Shown: in pieces, positions 2,848 to 9,038 of the stretch
How the letters are laid out: every line of letters begins with the position of its first letter
Position numbering within the stretch: position 1 is the stretch's first letter
Source: Candidatus Bathyarchaeota archaeon
GTDB taxonomy: Archaea > Thermoproteota > Bathyarchaeia > TCS64
Reading direction: 5' to 3'
DNA: 64,000 nt
Assembly: GCA_963769425.1 (NCBI GenBank)
Contig: CAVYLP010000006.1
Coordinates: 224,001-288,000 of the forward strand
Program-made: the position numbers and the translations under genes
The notes under the pieces: generated by a model
What the model saw: only the letters and a program-made list of their open reading frames with translations
What the model was told of the DNA's origin: nothing
The model's database searches: none

Positions 2848-4103
2848 ATCTTCTCCAACCTCCCACCGATCGCCGCGAGGTCGTCCCAGAAGCCCGGATA
2901 GGACTTCGAGACGCAGCCGGCGTCGTTGATCTTCGTCTCCCCCTCGGCTGTGAGGGCGAGTACTGCTAGTGACATGGCTATCCTGTGGTCCCCCCAGGAG
3001 TCGACATCGGCGCCCCTCGGTGTACCGCCCGTGATCTTCGCCGAATCAGGGTCACACCTCACCTTGATGCCCATGCGGGTAAGTCCCTCCACCATTGCTG
3101 CGACCCTGTCAGACTCCTTCAGCCTCAGCCTCCCGAGGCCGGTGAGGGTGCTCTCCCCCTCCGCCGCGGCGCAGAGGGCTGAGACAACGGGGAAGAGGTC
3201 GGGGCAGTCACTCATGTCGGCGCTGATCCCCCTCAGCGGGGACTTAGAGACTTTAACAGCTCCTCCAGCCGAAACATCGGCGCCCATCCGAGACAATACG
3301 CCAACGATCGCCCTATCCGCCTGTGAACTTGTTCGGTTTAGTCCCTGGAGCGTCGCGCCCCCGGTGAGGGCGCCGGCTGCGAGGACGTAGGCCGCGGAGG
3401 ACCAGTCACCCTCCACCTCCACCGCCGAGGCCCTGTAGGGTCCCAGCGGGGCCGTGAGCCGCCTCATATCAGGCGAGGCTCGCGCCTCGACGCCAAAGGC
3501 CCTCATCGCGTCCATTGTCATGGCGACGTACGGCCTCGATTCGAGTTGGGTCGTGAGGTTGATCTCGATTGGTGCGTCGGCGAGTGGGGCGACGGCGAGG
3601 AGGGCGGAGACGAACTGACTGCTGATGTCTCCGGGGAGCCTCGCCTCGCCACCCCTGATTCTCCCGTTGCCCATTATGGTGACGGGGGGGAGGCCGCCTC
3701 GGCTCGTGCAATTCACGCCGATCTGAGTTAGGGCGTCGAGGAGTGGCCCCACGGGACGCGCCGAGAGCGACTTCCCGCCTATGAGTCTGCACTCGCCGTC
3801 GACGAGGGCGCAGACGGCCGCCATGAACCTGAGGGTCGTGCCCGACTCTCCGCAGTGGAGATCATCTTTCGGTGCCTTGAGGCCTCCGCCCTCCACCGTC
3901 CACTTCTCGCCGCGGACGAGGTCGACGCCCAGCTTTCCGAGTACCGAGGCGGTCGCCTCCGTGTCGTCGGCGGTCAGCGGGTTCGCTATGGTGCTCTTCC
4001 CGTCGGCGAGGGCGGAGAGGACAAGGGCGCGGTGGGTCATGCTCTTCGAAGGTGGAGCTGTGAGCGTACCCTCGACCTCCGAGCGCCTTACGGTGACATT
4101 CAT
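2844..4103 (-). CDS. aroA: EPSP synthase
   Basis: PPSKSMTHR, CGESGTTLRF, SSQFVSA, KESDR, DHRIAM, VSKSYP. Confidence 0.97.
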   Translation of the reverse strand: MNVTVRRSEVEGTLTAPPSKSMTHRALVLSALADGKSTIANPLTADDTEATASVLGKLGVDLVRGEKWTVEGGGLKAPKDDLHCGESGTTLRFMAAVCALVDGECRLIGGKSLSARPVGPLLDALTQIGVNCTSRGGLPPVTIMGNGRIRGGEARLPGDISSQFVSALLAVAPLADAPIEINLTTQLESRPYVAMTMDAMRAFGVEARASPDMRRLTAPLGPYRASAVEVEGDWSSAAYVLAAGALTGGATLQGLNRTSSQADRAIVGVLSRMGADVSAGGAVKVSKSPLRGISADMSDCPDLFPVVSALCAAAEGESTLTGLGRLRLKESDRVAAMVEGLTRMGIKVRCDPDSAKITGGTPRGADVDSWGDHRIAMSLAVLALTAEGETKINDAGCVSKSYPGFWDDLAAIGGRLEKI

Positions 4104-4609
4104 TGCACGGCCTCCAACCGCCCCTTGATCGCCTCGGCGACCCGGATCGGTGGAACGCCATTCGTGTCCACAACCATGTCCGCGGCCGCCAGGTACCGCT
4201 CGCGCCTCTCGTCGAGGAGCCTTCTGATCCGACCGAGCCTGTCCTCCCCCTCGAGCAGGGGGCGGGTCGTGTCCAGCCTCGTGCGGAGGCTTATCTCCTC
4301 GGGGCTCGCCGTGAGGAGGACCATCCTGCTTGAGCAGCGGAGGCGCTCAATGTTGAGGGGGTCGAGGACAGCTCCGCCGCCGAGGGCGATAACCTGCTCG
4401 TCCTCCGCGCTGAGGCGCTGTACCACCCCGCGCTCCAGCGCGCGGAACGCCGGCTCGCCGAGGCTTGCGAAGACCTCGCCGATCCTCATCCCCGCCTCCT
4501 TCTCCGCCTCGGCGTCGGAGTCGACGAAGGTGTACTCCAGGCGAGTGGCGAGTAGCCTGCCTACGGTGGTCTTGCCCACGCCCATGAACCCGAACAGGGC
4601 CACGTTCAA
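4100..4609 (-). CDS. aroK: shikimate kinase, bacterial NMP-kinase type
   Basis: GFMGVGKTTVG P-loop, GEPAFR, ALGGG, RPLL. Likely TTG start at 4609 overlapping the aroE stop. Confidence 0.92.
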   Translation of the reverse strand: MNVALFGFMGVGKTTVGRLLATRLEYTFVDSDAEAEKEAGMRIGEVFASLGEPAFRALERGVVQRLSAEDEQVIALGGGAVLDPLNIERLRCSSRMVLLTASPEEISLRTRLDTTRPLLEGEDRLGRIRRLLDERRERYLAAADMVVDTNGVPPIRVAEAIKGRLEAVQ

Positions 4610-5445
4610 TGCGTGCCACCCCCGAGGGCTCGCCTCGCGGCGCCCATCATCACATCCTCCGGCGCCAGCCTTCCCGTCCACAGTCTCAGAGCCTCCGCCC
4701 CCTGGTAGACGAGCATCGTCAGTCCCCCCAGCGTCTCCGCACCAGCGGCCTCGGCGTCAAGGAGGAGTCGGGTCCGTTCGGGGCTGTAGATGAGGTCGAA
4801 GACGAGGAGACCGGGGTGGAGGATGCCTGCGTCGACGGGGCTGTGGCCTGCGTTTGGTGACATGCCCACTGGGGTCGCGTTGACAAGGATGTCTGCCGCG
4901 CCGACGCTGCTCCGAGCCTCCCCGAGACCCGCCCCGAGCACATCGACTTCGTGCTGCTTATCTATCTCACCCGCGAGAGTCTCCGCCTTCGCGGCGTCGC
5001 GGGCGAGTATCCTGATCCACCTCGCCTTCGGAGCCAGTCCGGATGCGACGGCGCGGGCCGCCCCGCCAGCCCCGAGGATCACGACCCGGCAGCCGTCGAG
5101 GTTGCCGTAGGCTTCGCCAATCGCCCTAACGGCGGCGGGGGAGTCGGTATTGTAGCCCTTCAGGCGCCCATCCTCGTTCACGACGGTGTTTACTGCGCCA
5201 ACCGCCCTGGCGGTGGCGTCGACCTCGTCTAGTAGGGGGAGGATAGCGACCTTGTGGGGGATGGTGACGTTGAAACCAGCGACGGAGGGCTCCCTGAGCC
5301 CAGCGACGGCCCTGCCCAGACCCTCGGGGGGCACAGGCATCGCCTCGTATCTATAGTCTAAGCCGAGGGCCTCGATTGCCGCCTCTTGCATCTGCGGGCT
5401 AATGGAGTGGGCCACGGGGTAGCCGATGAGGTAGAGGTGCCTCAA
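4606..5445 (-). CDS. aroE: shikimate dehydrogenase
   Basis: IGYPVAHSISP, NVTIPHK, GAVNT, NTD, GAGGAAR, NATPVGM, MLVYQG. TTG start at 5445. Confidence 0.95.
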   Translation of the reverse strand: MRHLYLIGYPVAHSISPQMQEAAIEALGLDYRYEAMPVPPEGLGRAVAGLREPSVAGFNVTIPHKVAILPLLDEVDATARAVGAVNTVVNEDGRLKGYNTDSPAAVRAIGEAYGNLDGCRVVILGAGGAARAVASGLAPKARWIRILARDAAKAETLAGEIDKQHEVDVLGAGLGEARSSVGAADILVNATPVGMSPNAGHSPVDAGILHPGLLVFDLIYSPERTRLLLDAEAAGAETLGGLTMLVYQGAEALRLWTGRLAPEDVMMGAARRALGGGTH

Positions 5446-7211: not shown

Positions 7212-8045
7212 CTACAGCCTTTTCCCCACTGCCGCCGCGATTGGGGTTATCTCACGCATGAGCGCCTCGAACTCGGGCGGGTGGAGGCTCTGGTCTCCGT
7301 CGCTGAGCGCCTTCTCGGGGTGTGGGTGGACCTCGATTATGAGGCCGTCCGCGCCGGCGGCGACTCCGGCCTTCGCCATCGGGGCGACGAGGCTCCTGAT
7401 CCCCGTCCCATGGCTCGGGTCGACGACCACCGGCAGGTCGCTGAGCTGCTTGATCACCGGCACCGCTGAGACGTCAAGGGTGTTCCTCGTTATGGTCTCG
7501 TATGTGCGTATGCCGCGCTCGCAGAGTATGACGTTGGGGTTGCCCTCGTTGAGTATGTACTCGGCGCAGCCGAGCCACTCCTCGATGGTGGCGGACATGC
7601 CCCTCTTGAGCATCACCGGCTTCGCGGCGCGCCCCACCCGCTTGAGGAGGGTGAAGTTCTGCATGTTCCTGGCCCCGATCTGGAGGATGTCCGCATAGCT
7701 CTCCACGAGCTCCACGTCCTCGGGCGCCATCACCTCGGTGACTATCGGGAGACCCGTCTCGCCCCTGGCCTCGGCTAGTATCTTGAGCCCCTCCTCGCCG
7801 AGTCCCTGGAAGCTGTAGGGGAGGGTCCGCGGCTTGAAGGCGCCGCCCCTGAGGATGTGCCCCCCCGCGGCCTTGACTATGCGCGCAGTCTCGAGGACCT
7901 GTTCGCGGCTCTCTACGCTGCAGGGCCCCGCCATGACGGCGAGTTGGTCGCTACCGATGGTCACGTCCCCGACCCTGATCTTGACGCCGCCGTGCCCGTT
8001 CTTCACGGCGAGCTTGATCTTCTGAGATACCACTAGCTTCGACAT
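7212..8045 (-). CDS. aroF: DAHP synthase, class I-beta, with no N-terminal regulatory domain
   Basis: [48 protein letters not shown] 8045 preceded by GGAGG. Confidence 0.95.
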
Positions 8046-8068
8046 GCCTGTGCCTCCGAGTCTCCCCT

Positions 8069-8137
8069 TCAGCACAGGCTGAGGGAGTAAAACCCGTGGA
8101 AGCCGAACGCGTGTGCGTCGCTCAGGGTTTCATTCAT
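8069..8137 (-). CDS. putative Phe/Tyr-rich leader peptide [22 protein letters not shown]
   Basis: 22-codon ORF with 3 Phe and 1 Tyr within 7 codons, stopping 23 nt before the aroF ATG. No clear SD. Confidence 0.45.
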
Positions 8138-8190
8138 CCGGGCGTCGACCCGGCTGTTGGATAGAACTAGGTTTGGAGCTTGGCTCCTGC

Positions 8191-8214
8191 TTAGACGAGG
8201 ATAAATTGGCGCAT
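8191..8214 (-). CDS. putative 7-codon uORF MRQFILV
   Basis: ATG 8214 lies 6 nt after a strong SD, GAGGTG (8226-8221). Confidence 0.35.
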   Translation of the reverse strand: MRQFILV

Positions 8215-8258
8215 TGATCGCACCTCTAGACTTACCAGCGAATTGAGTCTGATCACGG

Positions 8259-8265
8259 TATTTAA
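8259..8265 (-). promoter_or_regulatory. putative TATA box for the aro operon
   Basis: TTAAATA on the minus strand in the divergent intergenic region. Confidence 0.5.
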
Positions 8266-8339
8266 CCGATTCGGGCAGGTGCGGCTGGCGAGGAAGCGGC
8301 GGGTGACTCTTTATAGCCGGTTGAAGGGTAGTCCACATC

Positions 8340-9038
8340 ATGGGCGAAGAGAAGTCCCCACTCGACCGCCTCCTGGCGCGCCAGGACTTCAAGCCTTTCT
8401 CGGGTCCGCACGCCTTCCGCGTCCTCGGGCTTTCGAGGAAGAGGCTCAAGATGCCTCCGATCAGGGAGGAGGACGTCCTCAAGGCGGTGAGCAGCCTCGG
8501 CGTTGTCCTGGAGACGGAGGTCGCGATGATCGTGGCGCTCCAGCAGGTCCTATGCATGCGCTGCGGGAACTGCTGCAGGGGGAGAGGCTCGATAAGGCTC
8601 AGGAAGGATGAGCTTCAGGGCGTCGCCGACTACCTGCACGTCGAGTATAAGCGGTTAAAGGATCGGATGAGGGCGGCGCCGATGGGGGACGGAACCTTCA
8701 TCGTCTCCCAGCCCTGCCCGCTGCTAAGGGGCAACCTCTGCGCTGCGTACCCGGCACGCCCGGGGACGTGCCGAGGCTATCCAGCCGGCGACTTACTAGC
8801 AAATATAGGGCGTGGGAAGCAGTTCGAGGACTGTCCAATAGCGGACGAGTTGCTCGCCGAGGTCGTCGTGAAGCGGGTCCTAGAGGAGCAGATGTGGAGG
8901 GAGCACCCCGAGGAGCTGAAGGCACTCGCGGAGCAGAAGAGGGGCGAACTAGCGAAGCTCAGCGAGCTGCCGCAGAGCGAGAGGATGAAGCGCCTCGTAG
9001 AGGGCTACTCCCGTAGCATAGCCCGTGGGCAGGGTTAG
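8340..9038 (+). CDS. YkgJ-family cysteine-cluster (CxxCxxCC) protein
   Basis: CMRCGNCC, CPLL...C..Y..RP..CR.YP. TTTATA about 25 nt upstream suggests a leaderless transcript. Confidence 0.85.
   Translation: MGEEKSPLDRLLARQDFKPFSGPHAFRVLGLSRKRLKMPPIREEDVLKAVSSLGVVLETEVAMIVALQQVLCMRCGNCCRGRGSIRLRKDELQGVADYLHVEYKRLKDRMRAAPMGDGTFIVSQPCPLLRGNLCAAYPARPGTCRGYPAGDLLANIGRGKQFEDCPIADELLAEVVVKRVLEEQMWREHPEELKALAEQKRGELAKLSELPQSERMKRLVEGYSRSIARGQG

Follow-up and report, generated by a model that had tools for sequence, protein, structure and literature searches.

An apparently translated leader, probably the remnant of a Tar-like gene, as a candidate control element of the aro-pheA-tyrA operon in a Bathyarchaeia genome

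What lies between the promoter and the first gene of an archaeal operon for phenylalanine and tyrosine synthesis, and could it control that gene? The question is raised by a 64,000-nucleotide stretch of the genome of an uncultured Candidatus Bathyarchaeota archaeon (GenBank assembly GCA_963769425.1, contig CAVYLP010000006.1, positions 224,001 to 288,000 of the forward strand; hereafter the window, whose own positions are used throughout), which carries on its minus strand an operon ordered aroF-aroB-aroD-aroE-aroK-aroA-aroC-pheA-tyrA. The 294-nt gap between aroF and a divergent gene for a CxxCxxCC-domain protein holds all of the leader elements described here. Control of amino-acid operons by a leader open reading frame (ORF) is a textbook mechanism of bacteria, and a sequence-only reading of the window had proposed a counterpart: a long leader with a 22-codon, Phe/Tyr-rich upstream ORF (uORF) and two alternative hairpins before aroF. 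The long leader proved to be conserved in 26 related Bathyarchaeia leaders; the translated unit that it appears to carry is a different one. With moderate confidence, we read the region 8046-8291 as a promoter followed by the translated 5' leader that precedes the aro-pheA-tyrA genes. We regard the chances as evenly balanced that translation of this leader controls translation of aroF through a hairpin at the aroF ribosome-binding site (hairpin B), and that the leader is what remains of a gene for a Tar-like protein joined to the transketolase N subunit (Tar-like/TktN). Sensing of Phe and Tyr by the leader is plausible.

All sequences compared are metagenome-assembled genomes (MAGs) or metagenome contigs, and they are kin, so that pooled statistics overstate significance. 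Within the genus of the window, aroF is at least 79% identical in 11 genomes. A 22-nt pattern drawn from the most conserved block of the leader retrieved 13 stretches from genome contigs, 10 of them Bathyarchaeota sequences identical to known loci and three chance bacterial matches, and 18 from metagenome contigs, of which 15 were real and three due to chance. These searches yielded 26 distinct genus leaders, every one upstream of aroF in a single genus and all except L054, which ends early, extending to aroF. A class-wide search allowing at most one mismatch matched the block in 60 of 401 genomes, including 40 of the 70 other genomes of the same family (11/17 in the window genus and 26/32 in its sister genus); in two other genera aroF follows the gene for the transketolase C subunit, with no leader between them. 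The window genome itself holds no second copy at up to three mismatches, and the block thus is not a regulon-wide motif in exactly that form. A wider set of 86 family members was examined, made up of the 26 genus leaders, short leaders (14) and fused genes (14) from the same family, 11 fused genes from five further genera, and 21 stand-alone Tar-like genes of roughly 115-140 amino acids, two of which belong to the window genome.

Is the leader translated? In the window, an ORF of 46 amino acids occupies 8069-8209 on the minus strand, is open back to 8224 and ends at a UGA at 8071-8069. Of the 25 complete leaders, 23 keep this frame open from the invariant block GGTGCGATCAATGCGCCAATTT (8224-8203) onward and end it, after 48-66 codons, with a stop that precedes aroF by 21-27 nt. 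Two leaders apart, which are taken up below, indels within the frame measure 3 or 6 nt, and those before the block and after the stop 1-5 nt. Three AT-rich lineages are unalignable outside the block and still keep this frame open, their other two frames holding one to eight stops; dinucleotide shuffling puts the chance of such an open frame at 0.032, 0.033 and 0.017, values for which a factor of 3 should be allowed as the frame was picked after inspection of the data. By codon position, the substitutions in the leader number 70/65/74, with no excess at the third, compared with 20/16/46 in aroF. A frame kept open without such an excess argues for selection on an open frame ending at a fixed place and not on the encoded peptide.

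These features bear directly on the 22-codon uORF at 8137-8069. Its ATG (8135-8137, minus strand, in the frame of the leader ORF) and its stop at 8071-8069 are both present; however, the aligned position reads ATG in only 8 of 25 leaders and GTG in one, in-frame ATG, GTG and TTG codons are absent altogether from the leader frame in nine of the 25, and the frame is open with indels in multiples of three also upstream of 8137. The conserved unit, to judge from the alignments, is the longer 48-66-codon frame beginning at the block, with no conserved in-frame start. The remark that the uORF has no clear Shine-Dalgarno (SD) sequence holds for the ATG at 8137; a good SD, GAGGTG, does stand at 8226-8221 and serves another ATG, at 8214-8212. 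A classical leader-peptide attenuator initiated at 8137 could draw on the presence in the window of the ATG, a Phe/Tyr cluster and both alternative hairpins, yet the poor conservation of its start, the lack of an SD and the absence of a terminator-like U run after hairpin B, where the next sequence is AUGUCGAAG, make it highly improbable.

The opposite view, in which the leader is untranslated and conserved as a structured RNA or as DNA or RNA sites for a regulator, is the least probable of the explanations we weighed. It would accommodate the conserved hairpins found in folds (P1, P2, P3, P4 and B), the fixed distance of the block from the TATA box and the substitutions without codon periodicity. 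Structure alone, however, leaves unexplained the indels in multiples of three, the stop-free frame in AT-rich lineages and the stop placed 21-27 nt before aroF, and the identical 5' end heads real proteins of 380 amino acids. A search of Rfam at a permissive threshold gave no match within the leader and five weak matches elsewhere. Readings of the leader as a C/D-box small RNA or a T-box, judged by eye, were dropped because their motifs are not conserved in an alignment of upstream regions (alignment A1).

Those proteins point to the origin of the leader. At 14 of the 28 real loci outside the window genus, the frame of the leader ORF runs on for 380-382 codons (two are cut short), coding for an N-terminal domain of about 115 amino acids followed by Transketolase_N, and the next gene encodes the transketolase C subunit; the full-length homologues have no in-frame start. 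At the other 14 loci the frame is a 50-60-codon ORF, and the next gene is aroF except at L077, where it is pheA-like. Each of the three short leaders whose junction with aroF was read (L080, L081 and L084) ends in a stop that shares bases with the aroF start, in the form AUGGUGA or AUGGUAG, and 11 of the 14 short-leader peptides end in W, consistent with such an overlap. The N-terminal domain has no match in Pfam and no sequence match in PDB. It does match the NCBIfam model of TK0271, which is Tar of Thermococcus kodakarensis (E=1.4e-16, 60.4 bits), as does a stand-alone paralog in the window genome (E=1.5e-23, 82.8 bits), both scores lying below the curated cut-off of 130 bits. Fused genes also resemble Tar in their setting, for Tar genes too lie inside aro operons: the gene for the transketolase C subunit comes next, aroF follows tktC in two genomes (G021 and G026), and in G021 the distance from the fused gene down to aroF is about 2 kb. 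The family differs from Tar in its sub-threshold scores and in the fusion of the domain to a transketolase N subunit.

The leader peptide of the window itself matches neither the TK0271 profile nor, by BLASTP, the N-terminal domain. Another leader peptide of the genus, that of L012, is identical to the N terminus of the fused protein at 19 of 38 positions (E=2e-8). The block shared with the 380-amino-acid gene, together with this homology, indicates that the window leader is probably what remains of the 5' end of a Tar-like/TktN gene, the ancestral first cistron. The remnant keeps the promoter, SD, start codon and unusual start architecture of the ancestral gene. With only about 50 diverged codons left, the locus in the window would yield no Tar-like protein. 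An ordinary TktN gene lies elsewhere in the genome, as do the two stand-alone Tar-like genes (C2:31451-31849 on the minus strand, and C6 at about 464100-464520 on the plus strand, the latter being the paralog with E=1.5e-23).

How, then, would ribosomes enter a frame that has no start of its own? The SD GAGGTG (8221-8226, minus strand) is complementary to the 3' end of the 16S rRNA of this genome, GGATCACCTCCT, and the ATG at 8214-8212, which begins 6 nt after it, is offset by +1 from the frame of the leader ORF. Hereafter the frame of this SD-led start is the 0 frame and that of the leader ORF the -1 frame. In the 0 frame the window holds the mini-ORF ATG CGC CAA TTT ATC CTC GTC TAA (MRQFILV*; 8191-8214, minus strand), and MRQF followed by one to four codons and a stop is found in all 26 genus leaders; in relatives the codon at this one start position is ATG, TTG or GTG, depending on the lineage, and the Phe codon TTT or TTC. 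The arrangement extends to the whole family. C-CAA-T[AT][CT] is invariant in 86/86 members; CAA is followed in the 0 frame by a codon for Phe (TTT/TTC) or Tyr (TAT/TAC) without exception, and never by one for Leu or by a stop; and a 0-frame ATG, GTG or TTG stands 2-4 codons upstream of this site in 85, the sole exception (L111) having lost that start and having an in-frame ATG instead. Among 75 distinct family sequences, 47 have an aligned spacing of 8 nt between the SD and the +1-frame start, and 13 have one of 11 nt. In the protein frame, by contrast with the 0 frame, a canonical start between the previous stop and the site is absent in 54 of the 86 members, and in many of the rest it lies at or before the TATA box. 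Among the fused genes, substitutions by codon position number 31/32/29 before the site, 23/19/48 right after it and 98/67/221 farther on, which places the onset of coding periodicity in the protein frame immediately past the site. The two stand-alone paralogs of the window genome share the +1-frame start (ATG TCC CAC CAA TTC and ATG ACG CAC CTC CAA TAT). Gene callers mis-start or truncate genes of this family, the database proteins beginning at assorted upstream or internal codons.

Three further variations on this start architecture deserve mention. One locus from another family of the class (L136, G075:C12) carries the module twice in tandem, as ATG AAG CGC CAA TAC ... ATG AAA CGC CAA TTT. 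In four fused genes from two other genera (L113, L114, L115 and L116), an in-frame TGA lies 2-3 codons upstream of the CCA that belongs to the site, so that the protein frame is not enterable from upstream there, and two of these genes (L113 and L116) show a further +1-frame ATG near the predicted transcription start.

The architecture found in 85 of 86 members implies that the productive frame is reached either through a -1 change within the first three to five codons or by initiation at an invariant AUU or AUA codon. We favor the frame change, and place the proposed shift site at C CAA UUU (8203-8209, minus strand), to be reread as CCA AUU. The arrangement recalls -1 programmed ribosomal frameshifting (PRF) with an upstream SD, as in Escherichia coli dnaX and insertion sequence (IS) elements, in which a 0-frame start is followed by a product ORF without a start and an SD lies 9-14 nt upstream; a hairpin 5-7 nt downstream of the site is present in 18 of the 21 stand-alone paralogs, and in one of these hairpins (L129) the arms differ at synonymous positions with the pairing intact. 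Two further hairpins appear in consensus folds of the leader: P1 (GGUGC-GAUCAAU-GCGCC, 8208-8224, minus strand) pairs the SD with an anti-SD-like CGCC after the ATG, and P2 (GGAGC-CAA-GCUCC, 8175-8187, minus strand) reads GGAGU..ACUCC in L009, changed on both sides. The P1 stem is invariant, which leaves covariation uninformative; across genera, the partner of a U in its 5' arm is either G or A. In the window, 11-13 nt separate the SD from the shift site, a distance inside the 9-14 nt range given for stimulation of -1 shifts in the consulted portion of the review by Atkins et al. (PMC5009743), which also cites one IS element whose single SD serves as both initiator and stimulator. In the paralogs the distance is 15-19 nt, and the SD-to-site distance as a conserved stimulator was set aside.

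Several features nonetheless count against a -1 shift. The site C-CAA-U(A/U)Y does not conform to the canonical slippery heptamer X-XXY-YYZ in any of the 86 members, tRNA-Gln re-pairing on CCA would carry a central mismatch, P2 lies 15 nt downstream of the site (after UUU) and not at the usual 5-9 nt, and the shift, unlike known cases, would occur just 2-4 codons after initiation. In addition, one Ala codon before the site varies only synonymously in the protein frame, a pattern that could alternatively be explained by the pairing of the varying base with the SD in P1. The non-canonical site favors the second route, in which no frame change takes place: the -1 ORF and the full-length homologues would start at the AUU at 8206-8204 (AUA in the paralogs), and the SD-led mini-ORF would be an overlapping regulatory uORF. 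AUU or AUA is invariant in 86/86, the exchange between them is synonymous in the protein frame, and an N terminus at that codon is plausible, since the TK0271 profile begins 8-10 residues after it. However, 14-15 nt is too long a distance between the SD and the AUU, and this account leaves unexplained both the invariance of CAA and the start in the frame of CAA at a variable distance of two, three or four codons. Termination in the 0 frame followed by reinitiation at the AUU also is unlikely, as the 0-frame stop lies anywhere from codon 5 to past codon 30. On balance we consider such a non-AUG start unlikely and retain the early frame change as the working explanation.

At its other end, the leader frame runs into the two hairpins of the sequence-only reading. 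Hairpin A (CUCCCUCAGC / GCUGAAGGGGAG, 8087-8078 with 8073-8062, minus strand; -14.1 kcal/mol alone) and hairpin B (GCCUGUGCU / GGCACAGGC, 8079-8071 with 8054-8046, minus strand; -22.0 kcal/mol) are mutually exclusive, as had been described, and have counterparts in relatives. Hairpin B was confirmed to lie over the edge of the aroF SD (GGAGG, 8053-8057, minus strand, read from the sequence and conserved in alignment A2) and over the spacer to the ATG at 8045-8043: its 5' arm consists of the last two leader codons and the U of the stop, and its 3' arm of the last two G residues of the SD and the spacer. It is paired in 96.5% of the cells of 19 aligned sequences, against at most 47% in slid registers, six of its nine pairs never vary, and its predicted stability exceeds that of A in 24 of 25 leaders. 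In two leaders (L010 and L047) another hairpin, UUUCUGAAA/UUUCAGAGG, takes the place of B and matches it in topology. An A-like hairpin occurs in GC-rich relatives in a varying register. As for the long stem said to span the uORF, its outer 7 base pairs (8131-8125 with 8095-8089) are 87% paired, without double changes. A long-range pairing proposed by RNAalifold, CUAGUU/AGCUAG, was by eye not kept in L012 or L009 and was discarded.

Because hairpin B sequesters the end of the aroF SD and the spacer, translation of the leader would open the aroF ribosome-binding site by translational coupling. In the mechanism that we envision, ribosomes would load at GAGGUG and the AUG at 8214 and read CGC CAA. 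At the Phe codon UUU they would either stay in the 0 frame, ending at the stop of the dead-end mini-ORF (8193-8191), or shift to the -1 frame at C-CAA-UUU. Ribosomes of the first kind would terminate with some 110 nt still to go to hairpin B, and aroF would stay closed. The fraction in the -1 frame would translate the leader ORF of about 47 codons, whose amino-acid sequence appears unconstrained, reach the UGA at 8071-8069 within the 5' arm of B, and melt hairpins A and B.

This scheme most closely resembles the translational attenuation of ermC and cat in bacteria, in which an upstream ORF ends by an SD-sequestering hairpin and the position of the leader ribosome decides access to the SD. It differs in being archaeal, in its presumed signal, charged tRNA-Phe and tRNA-Tyr in place of an antibiotic, and in lacking an in-frame start of its own. 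With attenuation of the pheL and trpL type it shares a short leader that carries a cluster of end-product codons, mutually exclusive hairpins after that cluster and a biosynthetic operon downstream. Unlike those systems, it has no intrinsic terminator, B covering the ribosome-binding site instead; it has no conserved start with an SD; and its 48-66 codons appear to derive from a truncated gene. The nearness of the leader stop to the aroF start, which in the sister genus becomes an overlap (AUGGUGA), also is reminiscent of coupling by termination and reinitiation, but the window has a 23-nt gap, a strong hairpin and a separate SD between the two.

Could the leader also sense the products of the operon? 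The claim that the ORF ends in a Phe/Tyr-rich stretch before a Phe/Tyr operon was borne out: the cluster TTC GGC TTC CAC GGG TTT TAC (8087-8107, minus strand) is kept across the peptides of the genus, with no conserved Trp, and the operon includes pheA and tyrA. Phe and Tyr account for 80 of 315 codons in the last 15 positions of 21 distinct leader peptides and for 9 of 629 elsewhere, a contrast whose P value is inflated by kinship; at least two such codons occur in this segment in 21/21 peptides and at least three in 20/21. Phe is the last sense codon in four leaders (L010, L047, L012 and L039). Anthranilate synthase (PF00425) was not found in the window genome, a Bathyarchaeia MAG (G000) of 2.55 Mb in 6 contigs that is 91% complete, in which other trp genes were not searched for; the lack of PF00425 fits an operon supplying Phe and Tyr, and the shikimate pathway of this organism may serve those two amino acids only. 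Dependence on Phe and Tyr could arise at two points, the Phe codon at the shift site and the cluster at 8107-8087 just before hairpins A and B, and the opening of aroF would then depend on charged tRNA-Phe and tRNA-Tyr.

A number of findings weigh against control and sensing of this kind. The transcription start site and the translated frames are placed by inference. In two leaders (L004 and L007) the frame is broken by single-base indels, while L041, closely related to L004, keeps it whole. Covarying stems, which would strengthen the case for the RNA structures, did not emerge: hairpin A in a fixed register is not significant (99 of 500 shuffles equal it), hairpin P4 has no double changes, and hairpin B shows no covariation, being conserved but invariant and hence beyond the reach of such a test. 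The minimum-energy fold of 8240-8030, at -77.4 kcal/mol, departs only modestly from shuffled sequences (z=-1.99). In the window, 8 nt separate the last Tyr codon from the 5' arm of hairpin B, and a ribosome stalled at that codon would cover hairpin A and only three bases of B, which does not fix the direction of the response. In the short leaders of other genera Phe and Tyr make up 2 of 210 codons; these leaders have no cluster, which is thus specific to the window genus. The genes flanking the two paralogs of the window genome, judged by eye from ORF starts, are not obviously aromatic, and the presence of the start architecture there suggests that it may be a general feature of the family and not a sensor.

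Such observations lend themselves to a simpler history, in which the leader is a constitutive relic, a translated leftover that merely delivers ribosomes to aroF or opens its ribosome-binding site without sensing anything, with regulation exerted on transcription by a Tar-like activator. The promoter offers some support. The TATA box reported at 8265-8259 is present as TTAAATA (8259-8265, minus strand) and unchanged in all 11 upstream regions of alignment A1, with TTATATA in its place in one metagenome leader (L049), and in most of the 86 members of the family a TATA box precedes the CCA of the shift site by 41-51 nt. Six nucleotides upstream of it lies a Tar-box-like element, TCGCCA-N8-TGCCCG (8272-8291, minus strand), whose left half is weak and whose binding by a protein is putative. 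It resembles TGGACA-N8-TGTCCA, the sequence bound by Tar according to the portion of the Tar study consulted (PMC6737238), where Tar is also described as activating aro operons in Thermococcus. A relaxed pattern (N6-N8-TG[CT]CC[AG], placed 3-10 nt before the TATA box) matches at 16 of 26 genus leaders, 8 of 11 fused genes of other genera, 16 of 21 stand-alone paralogs and 4 of 28 sister-genus loci, and clearer palindromes stand at promoters of relatives and paralogs (TGGGCA-N8-TGCCCA at L118 and TGGTCA-N8-TGTCCA at L124). The strict box TGGNCA-N8-TG[CT]CCA occurs only twice in the window genome, neither time at a promoter. The two stand-alone Tar-like genes could supply the activator, the sister-genus leaders couple by stop/start overlap with no Phe/Tyr cluster, and the start architecture is common to paralogs not beside aromatic genes. 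What a mere relic does not account for is the retention of the Phe/Tyr cluster in all lineages of the genus while the remaining peptide diverged beyond recognition, the Phe or Tyr codon after CAA in 86/86 and the two mutually exclusive hairpins. We therefore hold this explanation to be a real possibility and still a somewhat doubtful one, and prefer leader translation acting through hairpin B.

If the early frame change is real, it is enticing to extend leader-based control to the activators themselves. About 85 genes of the Tar-like family, as well as the aro-operon leader, conserve an apparent frame change at a Phe or Tyr codon 2-4 codons past the start. Starvation might thus be sensed on the ribosome: translation of the Tar-like activators, and of the cistron that heads the aro operon, would start in a dead-end frame, ribosomes would slip by -1 at C-CAA when the A site awaits Phe or Tyr, and low levels of charged tRNA-Phe or tRNA-Tyr would switch on both the activator and, by way of the leader ORF and hairpin B, DAHP synthase. 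We regard this extension as a rather long shot. In the excerpted text of the Tar study, Trp, Tyr and Phe are without effect on Tar binding, and recognition of their absence is left as an interesting question (PMC6737238). A ribosome-based sensor, if true, would answer how the cell recognizes a missing aromatic amino acid and would make that question testable with simple reporters. Limited literature searches found no report of leader-ORF attenuation in Archaea, the matches listed being bacterial or off-topic, and none of frameshifting in Bathyarchaeia, the one match there being a review that names the phylum a single time; the consulted portion of one study describes -1 PRF as shown in Archaea for one case only, fucA1 (PMC8211752).

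The remaining observations concern the genes around the leader. The first gene of the operon, aroF (7212-8045, minus strand), encodes a DAHP synthase without a regulatory extension (Pfam DAHP_synth_1, E=1.5e-84; NCBIfam PRK08673, 451 bits), and pheA combines PDT and ACT domains. The divergent gene starts at 8340 and has a TATA-like box of its own about 24 nt upstream. Elsewhere in the genome, a region of about 400 nt before hisG (G000:C6:711788) contains two TATA-like boxes and an SD-led small ORF, MRDRLHQRRSPSRSVKPT*; a His-type leader was considered there on account of the long upstream region and small ORF, but the ORF has no run of His codons and the candidate was set aside. Within the operon, aroC (chorismate synthase) is split into two ORFs (2239-2847 and 1749-2246) with the break at 2239-2247 on the minus strand, where the window has one extra base (AAGAAAGGTGGGTGAT) relative to the closest relative (G008, locus L138; AAGACCGAGGGTGAC); the split may reflect an error of assembly, mark a pseudogene or be one more recoding site. 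Most archaea have a shikimate kinase of the GHMP type; the aroK product of the window (4100-4681) is by Pfam of the SKI type, which is the bacterial one.

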